A stretch of DNA of 43,321 nt from positions 1-43,321 of the forward strand of contig JASFEO010000010.1 in assembly GCA_050124795.1 (NCBI GenBank), read 5' to 3'. Below are positions 4,583 through 36,006 of the stretch, in pieces; the stretch's first letter is position 1; each line of letters opens with the position of its first letter. A program made the position numbers and the translations under genes. Source of the DNA: Candidatus Pacearchaeota archaeon. Its GTDB lineage: Archaea; Nanobdellota; Nanobdellia; Pacearchaeales; GW2011-AR1. A model generated the notes under the pieces. The model made no database searches and was not told where the DNA came from. It saw nothing but the letters and a program-made list of their open reading frames with translations.

Positions 4583-6328
4583 ATGGTGAGGTATGATATT
4601 AATACAATTAAAAAAGCATGCAATATTATCGATGTTATAAGCGAGCATGTAGTCTTAAGAAGATCCGGGGGGAATTATTTTGGATTATGCCCTTTTCACG
4701 AGGAGAAAACTCCTTCCTTTTCTGTAAATCCTGAGAAACAAATTTATCATTGTTTTGGATGCCAAACTGGAGGAGATGTTATCGGGTTTGTTATGAATAA
4801 TGAAGGATTAAATTTTCCAGAGGCGCTTGAACAACTTGCTAATAGGGGGGGGATTCAGCCAAATTATACAGGCAAAGAAAATAAAGAAATAATTTCCAAA
4901 AAAAATAATCTTTATGCTATTCTTGAAGAGGCCTGTGTTTTTTTCCAGACAAAGTTTTCTAAATCGCCTGCAGAAAAATATGCAATTAATAGAAAAATAA
5001 ATGAAGATGCAATAGCTCACTTCAGACTTGGTTATGCCCCGGACAGTTGGGATAACTTAGGAAATTATCTTTCCGGAAATTTTAACCCTCAAGATATCGA
5101 AGAAGCAGGGCTTATTATCCCGAGAAAAACTTCAGGACATTATGACAGATTCAGGAACAAACTAATGTTCCCGATTTCGGATAATCAGGGAAGAATAATT
5201 GGATTTGCAGGAAGGGCGCTTGAGGATTCAAAACAAAAATATACAAACACTCCTGAGACTTCAGTTTTCCAAAAAAGAAAAATTTTATATGGGTTGGATG
5301 GCGCGCGCAAAGAATTGAAAAAAAAAGAAAAATTATTTGTTGTCGAGGGTTACACTGATGTAATCCAGCCTTGGCAGAACGGATTTAAGACTTTTGTTGC
5401 AACAGGAGGGACTGCATTTTCAAGAGACCATGTAGAAATGATAAATGAGCTTGCAAAAAGATTTGACAGCCTTGAAACAATTCTTTGTTTTGACGGAGAT
5501 TCCGCAGGAAGGAGCGCGGCAGCAAGGGCAGTTGGAATTGCAATCCATGAGACTGATAATTTAAAAGTTTGCTCATTTCCCAACGGAGAAGACCCGGCAG
5601 GAGTTTTAGAAAAAGGAGGGAAAAAGATTTTTGAAAAAACATTAAATTCCGCGGGGGATGGTTTTGATTTTTGCCTTGATTATTATTCAGATGGGAGGAA
5701 CATGGATATAGTCTCAAACAAAATGGGATTATTGAACAGAACCCCTGTCAGAGAAATTGTCTGCAATCAGCATCCGAGAAAACAGGAAATTTTTATTTCT
5801 GTCCTGGCTGAAAAACTCAAACTCACAAAAGACAATATTAGGGATTTTTTAGAAATAGGTTCTACACAAATTTACAAACCCCTAAATCCTAAAAACTTTA
5901 GTTCGCAGGAATCTATGTTAAGGGAAATTTTCGCAAATGATTCTGAAACAATTATGAAATTTTTGCAGAGTCTTGAAATAGGGCAGGAATATTTCAAGGG
6001 GGTTTGCAGGAAAATTTTTGAATGTCTTTCTGAAGACAATGGAGACTTATCCGACCATGTCCAAATGCCGCTTTTTGAAAACAGCCTTAAAAATACACTC
6101 CTCGCTAAATTAAATCAAAAAGGAGTTTCTTACAAAAGCGCTGAAAGAAGCATTGAAAAATTATTTGACAGGCTTCCAAAACCTTCTCAAAAAAGATTAG
6201 AACTTGCTGTTGCAAATTTGGTTACTCAGGAATCTTTATATCACGAGCAAAAGTTTTTGAGAAAAGGCGGGTCACTTGTTGATTTTCTGAGAATTAAAAA
6301 AGAAGGGATGGAAAATTTAAAAAGATGA
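4583..6328 (+). CDS. dnaG: Bacterial-type DNA primase DnaG (CHC2 Zn finger + Toprim)
   Basis: GLCPFHEEKTPSF...HCFGC; YDRFRNKLMFPI; VVEGYTDV; CFDGDSAG; start moved to ATG 4583. Confidence 0.92.
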   Translation: MVRYDINTIKKACNIIDVISEHVVLRRSGGNYFGLCPFHEEKTPSFSVNPEKQIYHCFGCQTGGDVIGFVMNNEGLNFPEALEQLANRGGIQPNYTGKENKEIISKKNNLYAILEEACVFFQTKFSKSPAEKYAINRKINEDAIAHFRLGYAPDSWDNLGNYLSGNFNPQDIEEAGLIIPRKTSGHYDRFRNKLMFPISDNQGRIIGFAGRALEDSKQKYTNTPETSVFQKRKILYGLDGARKELKKKEKLFVVEGYTDVIQPWQNGFKTFVATGGTAFSRDHVEMINELAKRFDSLETILCFDGDSAGRSAAARAVGIAIHETDNLKVCSFPNGEDPAGVLEKGGKKIFEKTLNSAGDGFDFCLDYYSDGRNMDIVSNKMGLLNRTPVREIVCNQHPRKQEIFISVLAEKLKLTKDNIRDFLEIGSTQIYKPLNPKNFSSQESMLREIFANDSETIMKFLQSLEIGQEYFKGVCRKIFECLSEDNGDLSDHVQMPLFENSLKNTLLAKLNQKGVSYKSAERSIEKLFDRLPKPSQKRLELAVANLVTQESLYHEQKFLRKGGSLVDFLRIKKEGMENLKR

Positions 6329-8808: not shown

Positions 8809-9678
8809 TTATTTTAAAAATCTTTTTTTATTTTTCAAAGCATAAATTAAAATTAATAAAACCAGGACTAAAACAGAGACTGAAGTTTTTGGATATCTCT
8901 TTGTAATGCCTGGCTTGCAATCTTGGGGACATGTTTTGTAATTTTCATTATTGCCGCATACTCTGTTTGAATTGCACATAGAAACAGATTCTATAAATGA
9001 ATTTTTTGAAAGAACTGCAAACTGAGAAGTTTTAGTGACAGTTGGATAATCCTGCTTAGTTGCAATAACTTTTAATTCATAAATTCCTGTTTTTTCAGCT
9101 ATCATTGAGTATGGCAAAGTAATTTGTTTTATTGATTTATCAGGATAAGTTAGCACAGCTGCAACTTCAACACCGCCGACATCAGCATTATAATTCAAAT
9201 TCACAGTTTCTCCTATAATGAAACTTTTTGACTTTTGCATTAATGCGCTGTCTTTTGAAGAAACCAAATTCACATGCAAAGGATTTAATGCTCCTGCAAG
9301 GTAAAATGATTTTGAAGATTTGCTAATCAGTTTGTAATCATCTGAATTAAGAAGCCTTATTCTCATTTGATATGCTCCATTGAAAACAAGTTCATTAGTT
9401 GAAAGTTCGTAACTGACTGTTTCTGATTCTTCAGGGGCAAGTTTAATGTATTTAACAAAATTCCTCGGGACAGAGGCTTCAGGATTATTTGAATAAAGTT
9501 CTATTTCCAAAATCCAGTTTACAGGAACTTCTTTTTCATTTGTTATTAAAGACGTTGTTGTGATTTTATCATTAAGTTCATAAGTTGTTTTGTCGAGGCT
9601 AGTTGTCAGACTTTGTGAACTTATAATTCCAATTAGTGAAATCATTATTAAGACTGCAAAGGATATTTTTATTTTCAT
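8809..9678 (-). CDS. Surface protein (signal peptide, beta-rich domains, Cys-rich motif, C-terminal TM anchor)
   Basis: N-terminal signal; CNSNRVCGNNENYKTCPQDC; C-terminal hydrophobic helix followed by KNKKRFLK. Confidence 0.8.
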   Translation of the reverse strand: MKIKISFAVLIMISLIGIISSQSLTTSLDKTTYELNDKITTTSLITNEKEVPVNWILEIELYSNNPEASVPRNFVKYIKLAPEESETVSYELSTNELVFNGAYQMRIRLLNSDDYKLISKSSKSFYLAGALNPLHVNLVSSKDSALMQKSKSFIIGETVNLNYNADVGGVEVAAVLTYPDKSIKQITLPYSMIAEKTGIYELKVIATKQDYPTVTKTSQFAVLSKNSFIESVSMCNSNRVCGNNENYKTCPQDCKPGITKRYPKTSVSVLVLVLLILIYALKNKKRFLK

Positions 9679-11420
9679 GCCCAGGTCACCTCCCTTGCTT
9701 TTGGAACAAATGTCGGGTCGCCCAAAAGAGTGTATTGTCTTCTGACTTCATAATTATAGTCTGCTCTGTTAATTAAATTTGTTGCCATTGTGCCAAGGTC
9801 TAATCTGCTCACACCTGTTAATTCCTGTATCGCCCACATTTCCCAGTTATAGCCGTTTGTCGAGGGAATCGAAGCATGATAAGAAATTCCTCCTCTTCTA
9901 ATCCAGGTCGGACCGAATGTTTCTTCAAGTCCGCTCCAGAAATTATTAGTCTGGCATGCAAGGCTTAAAGTATAAGGCAGGTCAAGCCATGGAATATCTA
10001 AGGAAACTATTGTGCCCGCCCACGACGTCGGAGAGCCATGATCTGCAAAAGAAATAAATTGCTTGCCCTGATAATCTTCATCCTGGATATTTGTGTAGAC
10101 ATCACATTCAGGTTGTGATGCCGCGCCATTCCAGGTGAAACAAATTGAGTCATAACCTGATGCTGAAGTATTTGTTTTAATTGTCTGGGAATTTATCTGG
10201 TCCTGTCCAAAGTTTGGGGCGGCTATTGACATTCCTGTATAGTTTCCTTCTTCGTTATAAATATTGTCGATTAAGTCGTCATAAAATAATACTCTCGCAA
10301 TATAAGAAGATGTTCCGCTTAAAGTTATTGAATAAATTCTCCCAACTTTTAAGTCAGGTTCATCGTCGTCGATAGAGCCGTATAGCCAGTCAGCTGAGCC
10401 GTTTCCTGAATTCCCGCAGTCATGCCAATAAGAGATTCCTTTTGGAGAAGCAACAATTGTAAGATAGCCAGGAGTTTCGTCGAATAAATCAGAAATTTTA
10501 TTTTCTATAAAAGAATCTGCCTCGACAAAATCATTATTGCTGACCCCGGAGTAAGGTCCGCATTCAATTCCGCTTAAGTTCATTCCTAGAATAACTTCGT
10601 GCCTTGCGCTTGCAAGAATCGGAGAGGCCATTGAAAGTGCCAGGAAAGTTTGATTTATCTGGTCTGCTGATTTTTCAGGCTGGAAGTTCTCGATAATTTC
10701 TGTTTCTGAATCATTTACATTTACAAAGATAATTTTATCTGTGTTTGTTTCCTGTATATATTTTTCCTGCAATCCCTCAAGGTCATAAGTATGTGAACAT
10801 GTTCCGTATTCAGGGTCAACATCTCCGACACAAGTGACTCTTCTTCCTGTGAAAACAAATCCTGTATCATGCTCTCCTTTTATAATCAAGGGTGCATTAA
10901 TTAGTGAAGCATAAGTGGAAGCAAGAAGCGCGAGTTCGTATTTATCCTCGACATAAACAATGTCTTTAATGGCATCCCAGTAAGAAAGATAATCACCTGT
11001 TGTAATTGATTGTATTTGGGCAGGGTTTAACCCTGCACCAAGAGTTAAAGGAGAGGTTAAAAGATTTGTTAGTTCCAAAGGAATAGCCCCAACGACAATC
11101 ACCCTGTCAGGGGAATATTTTTGCAAAAAGTGGATTATTGAATCCGCATCAAAGCCAGGATTTTCTTCGTGGAAAATTAAAGTTGGATATTTGTAAACAG
11201 AGCTGTCAGTCCATGTTGAAACCGGGACAAGCCCCATGACCGCTTTCCAGTCTTTGTCAGAAATTAAGAAAACCTGTTTTTCAGTATATTTGCTAAAGTC
11301 CCTGTCGTTTTCAAAAATAAAAGCCCGAACAATAATCAAGATTAAAATTATTATGGCGATAATTAAAAGCATTATAATCAATGCAAAAATATTATTTACT
11401 TTTTTAAGATCAAATGCCAT
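9675..11420 (-). CDS. Membrane-anchored peptidase C25 (gingipain-like) family protein
   Basis: DLKVGRI, FADHGS (His), SLACQT (Cys), YTLLGDP; N-terminal TM helix. Confidence 0.8.
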   Translation of the reverse strand: MAFDLKKVNNIFALIIMLLIIAIIILILIIVRAFIFENDRDFSKYTEKQVFLISDKDWKAVMGLVPVSTWTDSSVYKYPTLIFHEENPGFDADSIIHFLQKYSPDRVIVVGAIPLELTNLLTSPLTLGAGLNPAQIQSITTGDYLSYWDAIKDIVYVEDKYELALLASTYASLINAPLIIKGEHDTGFVFTGRRVTCVGDVDPEYGTCSHTYDLEGLQEKYIQETNTDKIIFVNVNDSETEIIENFQPEKSADQINQTFLALSMASPILASARHEVILGMNLSGIECGPYSGVSNNDFVEADSFIENKISDLFDETPGYLTIVASPKGISYWHDCGNSGNGSADWLYGSIDDDEPDLKVGRIYSITLSGTSSYIARVLFYDDLIDNIYNEEGNYTGMSIAAPNFGQDQINSQTIKTNTSASGYDSICFTWNGAASQPECDVYTNIQDEDYQGKQFISFADHGSPTSWAGTIVSLDIPWLDLPYTLSLACQTNNFWSGLEETFGPTWIRRGGISYHASIPSTNGYNWEMWAIQELTGVSRLDLGTMATNLINRADYNYEVRRQYTLLGDPTFVPKAREVTWA

Positions 11421-11522
11421 TCTACACCTCGTTGTATTAAAAGTTTTAAGTTATATAAATTTAATTTTGATTTTTGAAAGAAATAAATTGGGGATTGTTT
11501 AATCTTGAAATTTTTAATTAAT

Positions 11523-11530
11523 TTTATAAA
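11523..11530 (+). promoter_or_regulatory. TATA box of the Thr-rich leader ORF
   Basis: TTTATAAA 21 nt before ATG 11552, the same spacing as at genes 532 and 1929. Confidence 0.7.
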
Positions 11531-11551
11531 CCCTGTTTTCTTAATTAATTT

Positions 11552-11599
11552 ATGACTTATACTTTTTTAACTAAAACTACGAAGACCACCAAAGCGTGA
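11552..11599 (+). CDS. Putative thrS leader peptide MTYTFLTKTTKTTKA
   Basis: 15-codon ORF with 7 Thr codons (ACT x4, ACG, ACC x2), ending 85 nt upstream of thrS; own TATA box. Confidence 0.8.
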   Translation: MTYTFLTKTTKTTKA

Positions 11600-11655
11600 G
11601 CTCTTCATTTCTTTAAATGATTAGCAAAAAATATTTACAACTAATGAGAATTAAA

Positions 11656-11674
11656 TTTATAAAACGTAAAGGAG
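11656..11674 (+). promoter_or_regulatory. Second TATA box and SD-like site for thrS
   Basis: TTTATAAA at 11656-11663 (21 nt before ATG 11685) and AAGGAG at 11669-11674. Confidence 0.55.
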
Positions 11675-11684
11675 TTAAATAAAT

Positions 11685-13421
11685 ATGAAAATTTTATGTT
11701 TGCATGTGGATTATGTAAAATTCAGGGCTTTGAAAAAAGCTTTAAAGAAAACAAAAGATTTAAATGAGGACGAGAAAAAAGAAAAACAAGTAAAAGATGC
11801 GCTTGTTGTTATGACTGCGGTTGAAAAGGGAGAGAGTAATGTTGGCATTGCAGTTGAGAAATTAATTAATGAAATTAAAAATATTGCAGAACAGGTTAAT
11901 GCAAAGAATGTTGTTTTATATCCTTATGCGCATTTGTCAAAAAATTTGTCAAGTCCTGAAACTGCAATTAAAGTTTTAGAGGAAGCTGAAAAAAAGTTGA
12001 AAAAAGATTTCAAAGTTTTGCGGGCGCCTTTTGGATATTATAAAGAATTTGAAATGAAAGTCAAGGGTCATCCCTTAAGTGAATTATCGAGGGAAATTGA
12101 AGTTTCAGGAAATGAAGTTGAAGAGGAATATACTAAAGAAGACCATGAAAGACTAATTAAGAGATTATCCAAGGTTAAAATGTCCACTCAAAAAGCTCCG
12201 GGTGGGATGAAAACAAATATTGAATTGGGGCGGGATTTGGATTTGTATATAATCAGCGAGGTTGTTGGTCCGGGTTTGCCTTTGTTCACTCCAAAGGGTG
12301 CGACAATCAAACGAGAGTTAGAAAGATTTGCAATTGATGAAGAACTTAAAAGAGGTTATTTGCATACGGACACTCCAATTATTGCAAAAAGTGATTTGTA
12401 TAAAATTTCCGGGCACTGGCAGCATTTTAAAAATGACATGTTTGTCTTAGATGTTAATGGCGAGAAATTTGCATTAAGACCTATGACTTGCCCTTTTCAG
12501 TTTGTTTTGTATAAAAGAAAACCAAGGAGTTTTAAGGAACTTCCATTGAAGTACGCAGAGATTGCGAATTTATTTAGAAAGGAAAAATCAGGAGAGCTTC
12601 GTGGGTTGACAAGGGTTTGGCAGTTTAAGCTTGCAGATGCCCATCTTATTTGCACGCCCGAACAGCTTGAAGGAGAGTTTGAAGGAGTGCTGGACTTAAT
12701 AAAATATTGCATGGAAAAAGTTGGGTTAAATGAGAATGATTTTTGGTATAGGTTTTCAAAGTGGGATCCGAATGATAAAAAAGAAAAATATATTCAGAAT
12801 CCAAAAGCATGGAGGAGTTCTGAAGCAATGATGAAGAAAATTCTGGATAAATTAAGATTAAAATATGTTGAGGCAAAAGGAGAAGCGGCTTTTTATGGAC
12901 CCAAACTGGATGTTCAATACAAGGATGTTTTCGGAAAGGAGGACACAATGTTCACAATTCAAATTGATTTTGCGCTTCCTGAAAAATACGACATGACTTA
13001 CAGGGACAAGGACAATAAAGACAAAAGACCAATGATTATCCACAGGTCATCTATTGGAGCTCCGGAAAGATTGATCGCATGTTTGCTTGAAAAAAATCAG
13101 GGGAATTTAAAGACATGGCTTTCTCCTGTGCAAGTTAAGATTCTTCCAATGACTAATAAAAATCTAGAATATGCAAAAAAAGTTTTTTCAAAATTAAAAG
13201 AAAATAATATACGTGTTGAAATAAATGAAAGAAACGAATCTATTGGAAAAAGAGTTAGAGATACTTTAGTTCAAAAAGTCCCTTACATAATAACTGTCGG
13301 AGACAAAGAAGAAAAAGATAAAAGTTTGGCAATCCGAGTTCGAGGGGATAAAAAGTTAATTAACAAAGGAGTTGATGATTTTGTTGAAGAATTGAAAAAG
13401 GAAATTAGTGAGAGATTATAA
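11685..13421 (+). CDS. thrS: Threonine--tRNA ligase with archaeal-type N-terminal editing domain
   Basis: YPYAHLS and RAPFGYYKEF...KGHPLSELSR editing domain; LRPMTCP, FRKEKSGELRGLTRV, GEAAFYGPKLD, MIIHRS core. Confidence 0.97.
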   Translation: MKILCLHVDYVKFRALKKALKKTKDLNEDEKKEKQVKDALVVMTAVEKGESNVGIAVEKLINEIKNIAEQVNAKNVVLYPYAHLSKNLSSPETAIKVLEEAEKKLKKDFKVLRAPFGYYKEFEMKVKGHPLSELSREIEVSGNEVEEEYTKEDHERLIKRLSKVKMSTQKAPGGMKTNIELGRDLDLYIISEVVGPGLPLFTPKGATIKRELERFAIDEELKRGYLHTDTPIIAKSDLYKISGHWQHFKNDMFVLDVNGEKFALRPMTCPFQFVLYKRKPRSFKELPLKYAEIANLFRKEKSGELRGLTRVWQFKLADAHLICTPEQLEGEFEGVLDLIKYCMEKVGLNENDFWYRFSKWDPNDKKEKYIQNPKAWRSSEAMMKKILDKLRLKYVEAKGEAAFYGPKLDVQYKDVFGKEDTMFTIQIDFALPEKYDMTYRDKDNKDKRPMIIHRSSIGAPERLIACLLEKNQGNLKTWLSPVQVKILPMTNKNLEYAKKVFSKLKENNIRVEINERNESIGKRVRDTLVQKVPYIITVGDKEEKDKSLAIRVRGDKKLINKGVDDFVEELKKEISERL

Positions 13422-24012: not shown

Positions 24013-25152
24013 ATGAAAAGAGGGATATTCAAAGTTATATTCGTTGTAATTATTGTTTTAATTTTCCTAAATAAAATTTCTGCGCTTGGAGTAATGCCTG
24101 GAAGATATGAAATTAATTTTCAACCAAATTCAAAAATAACAATCCCCTATCAGGTTCTTGAAGATGACCCCGCAAAAGAATTAAGTATTTCAATTGATGG
24201 AGAATTAGCAAAATACGCTAAATTAAGCAAAGATAAAATTAAGGGAAGTGAAAGTTTTACAGTTACATTAGAATTCCCCGGAGAAGTAGAAACGCCTGGC
24301 AAGAATGTTCTTTATGTAAGAGTAAAAGAAAAAGTAGATGATGAACTTGTAGAGGGAACAGTTGGAACTTCCGTATCAATAGGCGCAGCGATAGTTATTC
24401 ATGTTCCATATCCAGGAAAATTTTTAGAATTAGATCTTTCCTCAAATAATGCAAATGTTGGAGAGCCCATTGATTTTATTCTAAATGTAAAAAGTAAAGG
24501 AACAGATATAATTGTTATGAATCCGAAAATAAAAATTTATTCAGATAAAAATTTGATTGAAACCTTGCAATTTAATGAAAGAGAAATAAAAAGTCAGGAA
24601 GAAATAAAACTAAAAAAAACACTCGATACAACAACTTATAACCCGGGTAAATATAAGGGTATTGCAATTGTTGATTATCTGGATGATGTTGCAAAAGCAG
24701 AGCATGATTTTAGGATTGGGGAACTTGTAATTGATATTATTAATTATACTGATAAAATAAAAATAGGGGGGATAAGAGCATTTGAAATAAATATTGCAAG
24801 CGGCTGGAATAACAAAATAGACGGAGCCTACGCAACTGTTTCGATATTGAATGAAACAAAGCCAATTATTGAGTTTAAAACCGATACTGAAAGTTTAATT
24901 CCTTGGGAAGAAAAGACAATTGTCGGGCATTTCGATTCAACAAATTTTGAAGAAGGAATTTATGATGCAAATATAACCTTGATATACTTTGGAAAAGATC
25001 AGGGACGAAGCACAAGTGAAATTGTAAAGGTTGAATTCGTAAAGGAAACTAGTGTGGTAATCATCGCATCAATTGTATTCGGAATAATCTTAATCGCAGG
25101 AATTGCATTCTTGTTATGGAGACATTTTAAAAATGGAAAAAAGAAAAAATAA
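24013..25152 (+). CDS. Surface protein with Ig-like domains and C-terminal TM
   Basis: Signal peptide (ISA-LGV), beta-rich domains, TM helix + KNGKKKK. Confidence 0.75.
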   Translation: MKRGIFKVIFVVIIVLIFLNKISALGVMPGRYEINFQPNSKITIPYQVLEDDPAKELSISIDGELAKYAKLSKDKIKGSESFTVTLEFPGEVETPGKNVLYVRVKEKVDDELVEGTVGTSVSIGAAIVIHVPYPGKFLELDLSSNNANVGEPIDFILNVKSKGTDIIVMNPKIKIYSDKNLIETLQFNEREIKSQEEIKLKKTLDTTTYNPGKYKGIAIVDYLDDVAKAEHDFRIGELVIDIINYTDKIKIGGIRAFEINIASGWNNKIDGAYATVSILNETKPIIEFKTDTESLIPWEEKTIVGHFDSTNFEEGIYDANITLIYFGKDQGRSTSEIVKVEFVKETSVVIIASIVFGIILIAGIAFLLWRHFKNGKKKK

Positions 25153-32028: not shown

Positions 32029-33621
32029 ATGACTACAGAAAATTTTGAAAAACTCATTTCGAAAAGGGATGGTTTATTAAAGAGAAATCTCAACAAGGAA
32101 TTAAAATTAGCACAAATTAATCTAAAAAAAGACATTAAAGAAAATGAGACTCCAAAAAATAATTTCACTATTAGCAATAATAAACCGGAAAATCCTTTTG
32201 CAAACCAGAAAAAAGTTTTAGCGCCGATGATTGTTAGAGAAGAAAAGGCCGGGGAGATGAAAAATCCCGGAGATGAAAAACCTATTTTAAAAAATGAGAA
32301 TTCAGGGAATAAAAAAGGGATATTTAGTTTTTTGAAAAAAGAGCGGGAAACAATTAAAGGGAATATTTCTAAAGAAACCCCCCCGGAAAAAATCATTAAA
32401 AAGAAAATAGATAATAAAAAGATAAAAGAAGAAAAACTAAAAGTCAGGGTGAGAGATATGAAAAAACCTTGTGGGGTGAAACCAACAAAAGGAATTTTGG
32501 AAAAGGAAATGGAGATTGACAGAAGAATTTCGCGAGAGGTTGAGCCAAGGTTGGAAAAGGAATTTTCTAAGAAGAAAAAACAACGTAGAAAATTGAAGAT
32601 AAGTTCTGAGGAAGAAGTTAAAAAAGAGATTGTAAAAAATTCTGCAAAGCATGTGTCAAGACTCTCAGGGGAAGTTAATGAAATCGCAAGAGATATATCC
32701 CAATTAAAAGGAGAAGTAAGAAAATCTGTTGTGGGGCAGGAGGGAGTAATTGACGCATTTATCTGCGCGATACTTTGCGACGGGCATGTGCTATTGGAAG
32801 GTGTCCCAGGAGTTGCAAAAACATTGATTGTAAAAACACTGGCAGAAGCTTCGGGATGCAGTTCAAACAGGATTCAATTTACAGTTGACTTATTGCCAAG
32901 TGATATTTTAGGTATAACAACTTACACCCCGCAAAAAGGTTTTGAAACAATCAGGGGGCCGATTTTTTCTAATTTTATTGTTGCTGATGAAATAAACAGA
33001 AGTCCTCCGAAGACTCAGTCGGCGATGATTGAAGCAATGCAGGAAAAACAGGTTACAATTGGGAAGCAAACTTTCAAACTTCCTTTGCCGTTTTTTGTAA
33101 TGGCAAATAATAATCCCTTGGAACAGAGCGGAGTGTATGATCTTCCTGAAGCGCAGATTGATAGATTCCTTTTCAAGCTTTTAATTGGCTATCCGGAAAA
33201 CAAAGAAGAAGTAAAAATTATGGAAGAGAATATGACAATAAAAAAGTTTGAGAGTTTTGGTGTAAAGCCTGTTCTTTCCCCTCAGAAAATCACGCGCATG
33301 CAGCAGATAACAAAAGAAATTTATGTTGATGAAAGGATAAAGGAATATATTGTAAGGATAATTGACAAGACAAGAAAAAGAGATTTCGAAAACGGGCAAT
33401 TTATTGAATGGGGGGGTTCACCAAGGGCGAGCATTGGTCTTTTTATTGCATCAAAGGCGTGGGCGCTAATGAATGGAAGAGCGTATGTAATCCCAAAAGA
33501 TGTAAAAGATATTGCGCATTATGTTCTAAGGCACAGGGTGATTTTGAATTATCGGGCGAAGGCAGAAAAGCTTACGTCTGACAGAATTATTGACGAGATT
33601 CTTGATATGATTGAAGTTTAA
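32029..33621 (+). CDS. moxR: MoxR-family AAA+ ATPase with long charged N-terminal extension
   Basis: HVLLEGVPGVAKT, RIQFTVDLLPSDI, ADEINRSPPKTQSA, LPEAQIDRF, SPRAS. Confidence 0.93.
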   Translation: MTTENFEKLISKRDGLLKRNLNKELKLAQINLKKDIKENETPKNNFTISNNKPENPFANQKKVLAPMIVREEKAGEMKNPGDEKPILKNENSGNKKGIFSFLKKERETIKGNISKETPPEKIIKKKIDNKKIKEEKLKVRVRDMKKPCGVKPTKGILEKEMEIDRRISREVEPRLEKEFSKKKKQRRKLKISSEEEVKKEIVKNSAKHVSRLSGEVNEIARDISQLKGEVRKSVVGQEGVIDAFICAILCDGHVLLEGVPGVAKTLIVKTLAEASGCSSNRIQFTVDLLPSDILGITTYTPQKGFETIRGPIFSNFIVADEINRSPPKTQSAMIEAMQEKQVTIGKQTFKLPLPFFVMANNNPLEQSGVYDLPEAQIDRFLFKLLIGYPENKEEVKIMEENMTIKKFESFGVKPVLSPQKITRMQQITKEIYVDERIKEYIVRIIDKTRKRDFENGQFIEWGGSPRASIGLFIASKAWALMNGRAYVIPKDVKDIAHYVLRHRVILNYRAKAEKLTSDRIIDEILDMIEV

Positions 33622-34917: not shown

Positions 34918-34959
34918 AAAGAACAAATGAAAACTTCAAAACCCCATAAAGATTTTGAA
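34918..34959 (-). terminator. Putative attenuator hairpin plus U-rich tract after the serS leader
   Basis: Minus strand: TTCAAAATC-TTTATGG-GGTTTTGAA then GTTTTCATTTGTTCTTT, starting right after the leader stop codon. Confidence 0.55.
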
Positions 34960-35013
34960 TTAGTATGAACTAGAACTGCTTACAGAACCTGAATTCATAC
35001 TTTTGTTTCTCAT
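34960..35013 (-). CDS. Putative serS leader peptide MRNKSMNSGSVSSSSSY
   Basis: 17-codon ORF with 8 Ser codons including 5 consecutive (AGC AGT TCT AGT TCA), ending 64 nt upstream of serS. Confidence 0.82.
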   Translation of the reverse strand: MRNKSMNSGSVSSSSSY

Positions 35014-35034
35014 GAAGTAAAAGAAGATTTAATC

Positions 35035-35042
35035 TTTATAAA
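35035..35042 (-). promoter_or_regulatory. TATA box of the Ser-rich leader ORF
   Basis: TTTATAAA 21 nt before ATG 35013. Confidence 0.7.
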
Positions 35043-35118
35043 TTTATCGCTGAGTTTTTTGTTTTTTATAAAAGCAAGTTTTAAAAATTCTTATTTCTAT
35101 ATCTTTACAGAGGTGAAG

Positions 35119-36006
35119 ATGGAACAAGGAAAACTTAATGTGGATATAGCAAAGGCGATTTCTGAACTTGAGGCAATGCTTAAGGAATTCAGGCTGAAGA
35201 TTCCTCTTTACAAAATGTTTTTCAGGGGGAAAGGTCTGGAATTTGATGGTTACAGAGATTTTTATCCTGATGATGATGCAGAAAGAATTGACTGGAAAGC
35301 GAGTTCGCGGGCGCGGAAACTTCTTGTAAAGCAGTATATTGAGGAAAGAGATATAAGAGTTATGTTTATTATTGACGTCGGAGAAAACATGGTTTTTGGT
35401 TCAACTGAGAGAATTAAATGCGAGTTTGTTACTGAACTTGTTGCTGCGTTTTCAAAAGTCATGCTTAATGTAAATGACAGAATTGGATTTATATTTTTTT
35501 CAGATGCAATAACTCATTTTGTTGACTGCAAATCAGGTGAAAGGCAATTTAATATTTTTATAGAAACTCTTTCAGATGGAAAAAACTACGGGGGCACAAC
35601 AGACCTTGACCTTGCGCTTGACTTTGCAGTAGACTATCTTGATGATTCAATTTCTTCAGTTATCCTTGTCTCAGACTTTCTTAACATAAGTGCGCAGACT
35701 GAAAAAAAATTAGGACTTTTGTCACATAGATTTGAAACAATCGCAATAAGAGTCAGAGACCCTCTTGACATGACTCTCCCGGATATTGAAGGAGAAGTTA
35801 TTTTGGAAGACCCGAAAACACATCATCAGGTAATTATTAATCCAAAGGTTGCAAAAATGAGTTATGAAAAATATGCTTATATGCAAGGAAGGATGGTAAA
35901 GGAAATGTTTGAAAAGAGCGAACTTGACCATGTTGATTTAACCACAGACAAATCTTTTGCAGAACCACTAACACTATTTTTAAAAGAAAGGCTAGAGGGG
36001 TTATAA
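35119..36006 (+). CDS. DUF58 domain protein (MoxR-associated)
   Basis: GKGLEFDGYRDFYPDDDAERIDWKASSR...LLVKQYIEER; SD GAGGTGA before ATG 35119. Confidence 0.92.
   Translation: MEQGKLNVDIAKAISELEAMLKEFRLKIPLYKMFFRGKGLEFDGYRDFYPDDDAERIDWKASSRARKLLVKQYIEERDIRVMFIIDVGENMVFGSTERIKCEFVTELVAAFSKVMLNVNDRIGFIFFSDAITHFVDCKSGERQFNIFIETLSDGKNYGGTTDLDLALDFAVDYLDDSISSVILVSDFLNISAQTEKKLGLLSHRFETIAIRVRDPLDMTLPDIEGEVILEDPKTHHQVIINPKVAKMSYEKYAYMQGRMVKEMFEKSELDHVDLTTDKSFAEPLTLFLKERLEGL

Follow-up and report, generated by a model that had tools for sequence, protein, structure and literature searches.

Leader-peptide attenuation is a textbook bacterial mechanism, which depends on coupled transcription and translation. 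Examples of such attenuators in Escherichia coli are thrL (Rfam family Thr_leader) and pheM, the leader of pheST. The T-box of Bacillus thrS and thrZ contains no open reading frame (ORF) and binds uncharged tRNA directly. In the tnaC/Rho system of E. coli, the nascent peptide and free tryptophan arrest the ribosome, which then masks a site needed by Rho. The thrS operator of E. coli, located by the ribosome binding site, is a mimic of the tRNA-Thr anticodon arm with NGU in its loop and is bound by threonyl-tRNA synthetase (ThrRS). The current work describes a short ORF (sORF) rich in threonine codons ahead of the ThrRS gene, thrS, of an archaeon. It lies in contig JASFEO010000010.1, the whole 43,321 nucleotides (nt) of which are referred to as the window. 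Judged by its sequence and that of its homologues, this sORF is very likely a functional leader of the cognate-codon type.

The codons of the sORF are ATG ACT TAT ACT TTT TTA ACT AAA ACT ACG AAG ACC ACC AAA GCG TGA. Seven of the 15 residues are Thr (codons 2, 4, 7, 9, 10, 12 and 13; ACT four times, ACC twice and ACG once), and thrS begins 85 nt downstream, so that the cognate-codon feature of a bacterial-type attenuator is present. Thr accounts for 5.3% of the codons in the long ORFs of the genome. The rare codons ACC and ACG make up three of the seven Thr codons, against 12% genome-wide. When all ATG-started ORFs of 10-25 codons were collected from the six frames of the whole 1.06-Mb genome (6671 in total), this sORF ranked first and was the only one with at least seven Thr at a share of at least 40% of residues; the next most Thr-rich contained 7 Thr in 24 residues and 6 in 24. 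Among 876 sORFs upstream of long ORFs, the combination of TTTATAAA at -29 to -22 with at least 45% of a single residue was found in two, the Thr-rich sORF and a Ser-rich sORF in front of serS. Rarity alone is not decisive, for scanning very many windows yields coincidences; the decisive evidence is the geometry of the start, the recurrence of the element and the existence of its twin at serS. The features of both leader regions are listed in Table 1.

Table 1. Features of the thrS and serS leader regions in the window. Matrix values give the promoter score at the start, the percentile among 745 gene starts and the share of random ATGs scoring as high.
Feature	Positions	Strand	Description	Matrix values
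Upstream neighbour	9675-11420	-	divergent from thrS; Peptidase_C25-like	
Distal promoter P1, TATA box TTTATAAA	11523-11530	+	upstream A/T-rich TAATT; 21 nt before sORF ATG	
Thr-rich sORF, predicted leaderless	11552-11599	+	15 codons and TGA; translation MTYTFLTKTTKTTKA; homologues in G116 and L061	21.6; 99th; 0.02%
U-rich hairpin region	11600-11625	+	starts right after the stop; inner stem UCAUUU/AAAUGA, loop CUUU; outer stem GCU/AGC	
Conserved spacer ATATTTACAACTAATGAGAATTAAA	11631-11655	+	leads into P2	
Proximal promoter P2, TATA box TTTATAAA	11656-11663	+	21 nt before thrS ATG	
Shine-Dalgarno-like AGGAG	11670-11674	+	10 nt before thrS ATG, within the P2 spacer	
thrS	11685-13421	+	578 aa; archaeal-type threonyl-tRNA synthetase; PF08915, PF00587, PF03129	8.8; 80th; 1.3%
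Sister element	34935-35042	-	upstream of serS; TTTATAAA (35042-35035), 21 nt, sORF, hairpin	
Ser-rich sORF MRNKSMNSGSVSSSSSY, predicted leaderless	35013-34960	-	8 Ser of 17; AGY and UCN codons mixed	12.1; 85th; 0.8%
11-bp hairpin	34959-34935	-	directly after Ser sORF stop; -8.0 kcal/mol, z -2.4, 2 of 200 shuffles as good	
serS	34895-33639	-	PF02403 and PF00587; starts 64 nt past Ser sORF stop	-16.2; 47th; 16.5%

The thrS locus resembles thrL and pheM in having a short upstream ORF rich in codons for the amino acid of the downstream gene, with a hairpin close behind; the likeness to pheM-pheST extends to the regulated gene, which is also an aminoacyl-tRNA synthetase (aaRS) gene. It differs from both in its archaeal host with TATA promoters, in an ORF that appears to be read from a leaderless end and not from a Shine-Dalgarno (SD) site, in the second promoter between leader and gene, and in the lack of a clear stem-loop and U-run terminator and of a supported antiterminator. 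With the T-box it has in common the gene under control and the presumed signal, tRNA-Thr charging. A cmscan search of positions 11000-12000 at E values up to 10 returned no Thr_leader, T-box or other leader family, and its snoRNA match (E 4.2) is a chance one. An operator of the E. coli thrS type is not present, as the only hairpin has the loop CUUU and stands 45 nt before the SD-like motif. The tnaC system offers an analogy for one possible output, namely a ribosome at the end of a short ORF that masks an adjacent termination site; here, however, the signal would be a shortage of charged tRNA, and the candidate factor would be aCPSF1 on U-tracts, as indicated by the abstract of one report (PMC8716108), rather than Rho. 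Among titles and abstract openings, no paper on leader-peptide control in archaea was found.

The arrangement of the promoters is that of leaderless archaeal genes. Where TTTATAAA precedes an ORF of at least 80 aa in this genome, its spacing to the ATG has a sharp mode at 21 nt (52 cases), with no more than 11 cases at any other spacing, and this peak is the signature of leaderless mRNAs; in genome G116, which carries a homologous leader, the mode is likewise 21. By this test of spacing, both the sORF and thrS are placed as archaeal leaderless units. A promoter position matrix, built from 91 gene starts of the genome and scored against 745 long-ORF starts, ranks the start of the sORF particularly high (Table 1). 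The spacing and the matrix scores together suggest that P1 would make the sORF the 5'-terminal ORF of its transcript, and that P2 would do the same for thrS. The first-pass annotation of this DNA had proposed tandem promoters, the proximal one leaderless, and the genome-wide spacing and the matrix percentiles of both starts (99th and 80th) agree with it. The likewise leaderless character of the distal promoter, with respect to the sORF, was not part of that proposal. The elements that it had named were all recovered at the same positions: the sORF, both TTTATAAA boxes, GAAGA (11581-85), TCTTC (11602-06), the hairpin region, AGGAG and the ATG of thrS.

The AGGAG motif would exist solely on transcripts from P1. 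A TATA box is combined with an SD-like motif in 5 of 126 genes of the genome and in 1 of 148 distinct thrS regions of relatives, whereas an SD-like motif lies within the P2 spacer in two of the three thrS loci with a leader (AGGAG in the window and GGAGG in G116). Its position in this spacer, otherwise rare, argues that P1 transcripts reach and express thrS, and it fits translation of thrS from P1 read-through transcripts. Two TATA-like boxes about 28 nt apart were also observed before thrS in two relatives, L002 and L010; the distal box there, a palindromic TTTATAAA, is suitably spaced to act as promoter of the divergent gene upstream. Tandem boxes by themselves are therefore no evidence of a leader.

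Homologous leaders were found at two further thrS loci of Woese-/Pacearchaeota. In L061, a metagenome locus, the box TTATAAA is followed after 21 nt by a sORF of 15 codons, MSSLFLNKKFTTTTA, at -137 to -89 (-133 to -85 in the window), with four Thr as a TTTT run; the sORF ends in TTTTA. The second was obtained with a sequence-only covariance model of the window and L061, searched against 151 family genomes, in which a match in G116 (E 1e-6; the next best reached 0.004) fell directly before thrS. The order in G116 is TTTATAAA, 21 nt, the sORF MKNSLFTKTRTTTTTK (7 Thr of 16), a hairpin, 23 nt that match the window exactly and include the proximal TATA box, GGAGG and thrS. The identical stretch is TAATGAGAATTAAATTTATAAAA, positions 11642-11664 of the window, and it continues through the P2 box. 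In both G116 and L061, a second TATA box stands 23 nt before thrS. The cognate run, a feature of attenuators, is retained in both homologous leaders.

Comparison of the three sORFs shows signs of selection on the reading frame, with Thr retained at codons whose third bases change. Across the three loci, Thr is encoded by ACC, ACT and ACG three codons before the stop and by ACC, ACA and ACA four codons before it; the stop codons also differ (TGA, TAG, TAA), and the lengths are 15, 16 and 15 codons. Each sORF contains one rare ACG codon. Between the window and L061, there are 4, 8 and 8 differences at first, second and third codon positions, and conservation is limited to length, Thr content and F/L. 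The peptide sequence is poorly conserved, as is expected where the codons, not the product, matter. Past the sORF, the noncoding sequence of the window is 78% identical to that of G116 (0 of 500 shuffles as high) and 71% identical to that of L061 (1 of 500), compared with 60% and 57% in the coding part of thrS.

The twin element at serS was found through a genome-wide list of short ORFs in the TATA-21-ATG geometry. Downstream of its 11-bp hairpin is a U-rich tract, GUUUUCAUUUGUUCUUU, and serS has no promoter of its own according to its negative matrix score. With a ribosome over the 5' arm, the 3' arm of this terminator-like hairpin can pair further downstream; the structure of the serS leader is more classical than that of the thrS leader. 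Among seven examinable upstream regions of close serS relatives, one (L250, 86% identical) contains a Ser leader, in which 10 of the 18 residues are Ser and which likewise has this hairpin, with AGGAG before serS. The five leaders at thrS and serS share a common layout: a strong promoter, a leaderless ORF, a cognate run reaching to within one or two codons of the stop, and, 0-6 nt past the stop, the beginning of a hairpin or U-rich stretch. The conserved spacer and the second promoter are additions of the thrS leaders.

The inferred part of the model comprises the starts of transcription at both promoters, sORF translation, ribosome stalling, a termination step and the sign of the regulation, which would fit together as follows. 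Transcripts from P1 would begin at or next to the A of the ATG at 11552, and the 15-codon ORF would be read from this leaderless 5' end. When charged tRNA-Thr is scarce, the ribosome would stall on the Thr codons, whose run ends two codons before the stop, and would be parked beside the U-rich hairpin region. The preferred output is that the parked ribosome blocks the folding of this region or its use as a termination signal; more P1 transcripts would then cross P2 into thrS, where AGGAG would permit internal initiation. When Thr-tRNA is plentiful, the ribosome would finish and leave, and P1 would add little to the constant basal supply of leaderless thrS mRNA that P2 may provide. The abstracts of two reports describe termination at U-tracts with aCPSF1 in an AT-rich archaeon (PMC8716108, PMC7515710). 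The U-rich stretch UCUUCAUUUCUUU of the window begins 3 nt past the sORF stop. The output could also lie in interference of the two promoters with each other, in a change of mRNA stability, or in the palindrome acting as a DNA operator. That the sORF is a regulatory leader through which thrS responds to the charging of Thr-tRNA is, in general, the probable explanation, though with considerable room for doubt; the specific step of occlusion and termination is a tentative suggestion and, taken by itself, rather unlikely.

Various results weigh against a sensing leader of this kind, and many of them concern RNA structure. The hairpin of the window is marginal (-7.4 kcal/mol, z -2.0, 14 of 200 shuffles as good). 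That of G116 has an inner stem one base pair longer (UCAUUUU/AAAAUGA) and reaches -3.8 kcal/mol (z -0.75), and L061 has a different hairpin in the same place (-3.6 kcal/mol, z -0.66). For the full leader, 11552-11700, folding is not stronger than in shuffles (z -0.95), and RNAalifold with the window and L061 gave three pairs, no consensus structure and no compensatory change. Downstream of the sORF in the window there is no run of four or more T, and the sequence after the hairpin is A-rich, so a terminator is not evident. The first-pass annotation had envisaged mutually exclusive hairpins, one of them formed by GAAGA and TCTTC; the folds are weak, no covariation was seen in two to three sequences, and this pairing, although it can be drawn, appears in no minimum-energy fold, with or without ribosome masks. 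In each of the three thrS leaders, the last codons could form a short pairing with the bases that directly follow the stop (GAAGA/UCUUC, GAAC/GUUC and ACAGC/GCUGU), and only the one in L061 is present in a minimum-energy fold. The footprint of a ribosome extends about 12-15 nt downstream of the A/P site, so that a ribosome on the last Thr codon would barely reach the hairpin. A ribosome at the stop codon would mask the hairpin too, so that the layout fits control of either sign.

The distribution of the leader belongs on the same side. The first-pass annotation had looked to orthologous regions for a Thr-rich ORF; this expectation was borne out in two other lineages, L061 and G116, and not in about 171 other thrS upstream regions. 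Four sets of such regions were examined, not deduplicated, with 148 distinct regions among them. A Thr-rich sORF was absent from all 26 regions of relatives of the window genome (ThrRS 40-65% identical to the window), all 74 from the genomes closest to the L061 ThrRS (63-73% identical to L061; 6 partial regions excluded) and all five from genomes with serS relatives (ThrRS 43-47% identical to the window), and was found in one, L061, of the 66 metagenome loci (9 too short and 5 without an N-terminal match excluded). Nearly all regions of the relatives have a single TATA box about 21 nt before the ATG of thrS. The core motif was detected in 2 of 401 family genomes, while a reversed control gave no match; in a species-representative collection (185,579 species, by the description of the tool), G116 alone was genuine among four matching stretches. 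A leader so rare among relatives is evidently dispensable. In a FastTree phylogeny of 176 ThrRS, the three leader-bearers are scattered, requiring three changes, all forced by well-supported branches; the leader cassette either moves between lineages or was lost many times. Finally, the noncoding sequences of G116 and L061 are only 64% identical, which is not above shuffles (42 of 500 as high), compared with 70% in the coding part.

Four other explanations have to be weighed. P1 and the sORF may form an independent micro-gene for a Thr/Lys-rich peptide of 15 residues with its own function, with P2 alone serving thrS. P1 is indeed a very strong promoter match, P2 by itself has the normal leaderless geometry for thrS, and nothing shows read-through. 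This explanation is nevertheless improbable: the peptide sequence is poorly conserved between the window and L061, the element has been found solely in front of thrS in three unrelated contexts, an SD-like motif lies inside the P2 spacer, and the Ser-rich twin precedes a serS without a promoter of its own. It is also conceivable that the leader is the relic of a promoter duplication, or of a transferable insertion of about 135 bp at the thrS start codon, in which case the sORF would be the reading of the old start codon and the likeness among loci would reflect recent shared descent. In G116 and L061, P1 directly follows the end of the class I aaRS-like gene upstream, at the site where relatives lacking the leader keep their only thrS promoter, and the cassette thus looks like an insertion at the start codon of thrS. 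The patchy distribution, incongruent with the ThrRS tree, points in this direction, as do the identities of leader and gene, the leader being more conserved than coding sequence between the window and G116 and less conserved than ThrRS between G116 and L061. Third-base turnover at kept Thr codons, three different stops and conserved length, however, indicate selection on the frame; no further copy of the cassette is found in its own genome or in G116, an independent Ser version exists, and transfer and function are compatible. The probability of a relic is as low as that of a micro-gene.

Control at the level of DNA is a further rival of similarly small likelihood, in which the palindrome CATTT-N4-AAATG and the conserved spacer form an operator that acts on P2 or blocks P1, the sORF being incidental. 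The palindrome lies about 30-55 bp upstream of the P2 TATA box, where archaeal activator sites are commonly located; moreover, its arms and loop are conserved in sequence between the window and G116 and do not covary. An operator would not account for the abundance of Thr, the position of the ATG at a leaderless start or the Ser twin, and the sequence of L061 differs at the site. The last rival, a chance ORF in AT-rich spacer DNA, is disfavoured and much less likely than any of these. Where very many windows are scanned, a cognate-rich sORF is bound to fall by chance before an aaRS gene somewhere, but not readily one that ranks first among 6671, has the exact promoter geometry and two homologous leaders, and is matched by a Ser/serS twin with a homologue of its own.

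If the sORF is a leader that senses tRNA charging, the presence of cognate leader ORFs at two synthetase genes of one archaeon would mean that archaea too read tRNA charging by means of the ribosome, in a stripped-down form without a 5' untranslated region. Symbiont-like genomes of 1 Mb would then keep gene-specific control of translation factors. The compact cassette of about 135 bp would be a testable object for the interplay of archaeal termination, promoter interference and leaderless initiation. A broader view, for which the present evidence leaves somewhat less than an even chance, is that archaea sense in general through leader peptides on leaderless transcripts, the ribosome loading at the 5'-terminal AUG and its progress setting the level of the synthetase. 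The promoter-sORF-hairpin units of DPANN archaea would, in this broader view, be small transferable cassettes that are gained and lost at thrS and at the horizontally spread second serS.

The host of the window is a Woese-/Pacearchaeota (DPANN) archaeon, with a genome of 1.06 Mb in 38 contigs, about 90% complete and about 32% G+C; the genomes of the relatives measure 0.4-1.7 Mb. The product of thrS is the single ThrRS detected in this genome, other matches being other class II enzymes (E about 1e-7). With 11 Pfam searches, 19 aaRS genes were located, and a cognate-rich leader was found at thrS and serS only, the remaining 17 having none. The Ile-rich sORF MIIIIKTIT precedes a class I enzyme by 149 nt but was left out of this count, as it is not in the TATA geometry.

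Searches with nhmmer and with covariance models through the own genome, 110 thrS loci (L001-L110) and 151 + 41 genomes found no copy of the leader except that of G116. Several weaker candidates were rejected. Eighteen weak model matches (L113-L130) are not adjacent to thrS. Two more matches, G025:C2 and G116:C33, are noise; that in G116:C33 is where a CysRS-like gene begins. The three bacterial matches to the motif in the species-representative collection are due to chance. Among the 26 relatives, the flagged rows proved to be the in-frame ends of genes lying upstream (24-66 aa, Thr no more than 15%) and an ORF of 6 aa. A long-range pairing of sORF codons 2-7 with the SD-like motif and AUG of thrS, seen in masked folds, occurred only in the window, not in G116 or L061, and was dropped.

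The serS of the window is a second copy. The other SerRS-like gene, at C16:10690-11970 on the minus strand, is 32% identical and has a plain leaderless start. The closest relatives of the window serS (74-86% identical) are in Woesearchaeota genomes whose ThrRS is 43-47% identical to that of the window, which suggests, on sequence grounds, that this serS copy has spread horizontally. Further relatives, 59-61% identical, lie on contigs labelled Methanosarcinales. In 29 other serS regions of relatives, no Ser-rich sORF with TATA geometry was found; seven of these had been flagged for Ser (4-7 Ser, at most 36% of the peptide), all of them without that geometry. L251 has no Ser leader, and its promoter-ATG spacer contains, at about 560-600, the sequence GATTCAAAACTTATAGGATT. 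Judged by eye, this sequence is similar to the L250 hairpin in its 5' arm and loop, and it may be what a deletion has left of a Ser leader; a MAFFT alignment did not put it at that place. The serS locus of the window is flanked by genes for a MoxR-type AAA ATPase (PF07726) and a DUF58/VWA protein, at 32029-33621 and 35059-36006 on the plus strand.

A scan of G116 (548 kb in 54 contigs) found no second cognate leader beyond the Thr one. An Ile-rich sORF with TATA geometry, MKIIIAKINRIISPAIIIIK, was observed there in L278 (G116 C15, minus strand, oriented 4766-4828), 43 nt before an ORF of 80 aa that is not an aaRS gene. In the own genome, contig C8 (minus strand, oriented 24769-24843) contains a sORF of Met and Ile only (...MMIMMMMIMIMIMMNK), without TATA geometry, 34 nt before an ORF of 347 aa, and this sORF may be a simple ATG/ATA repeat.

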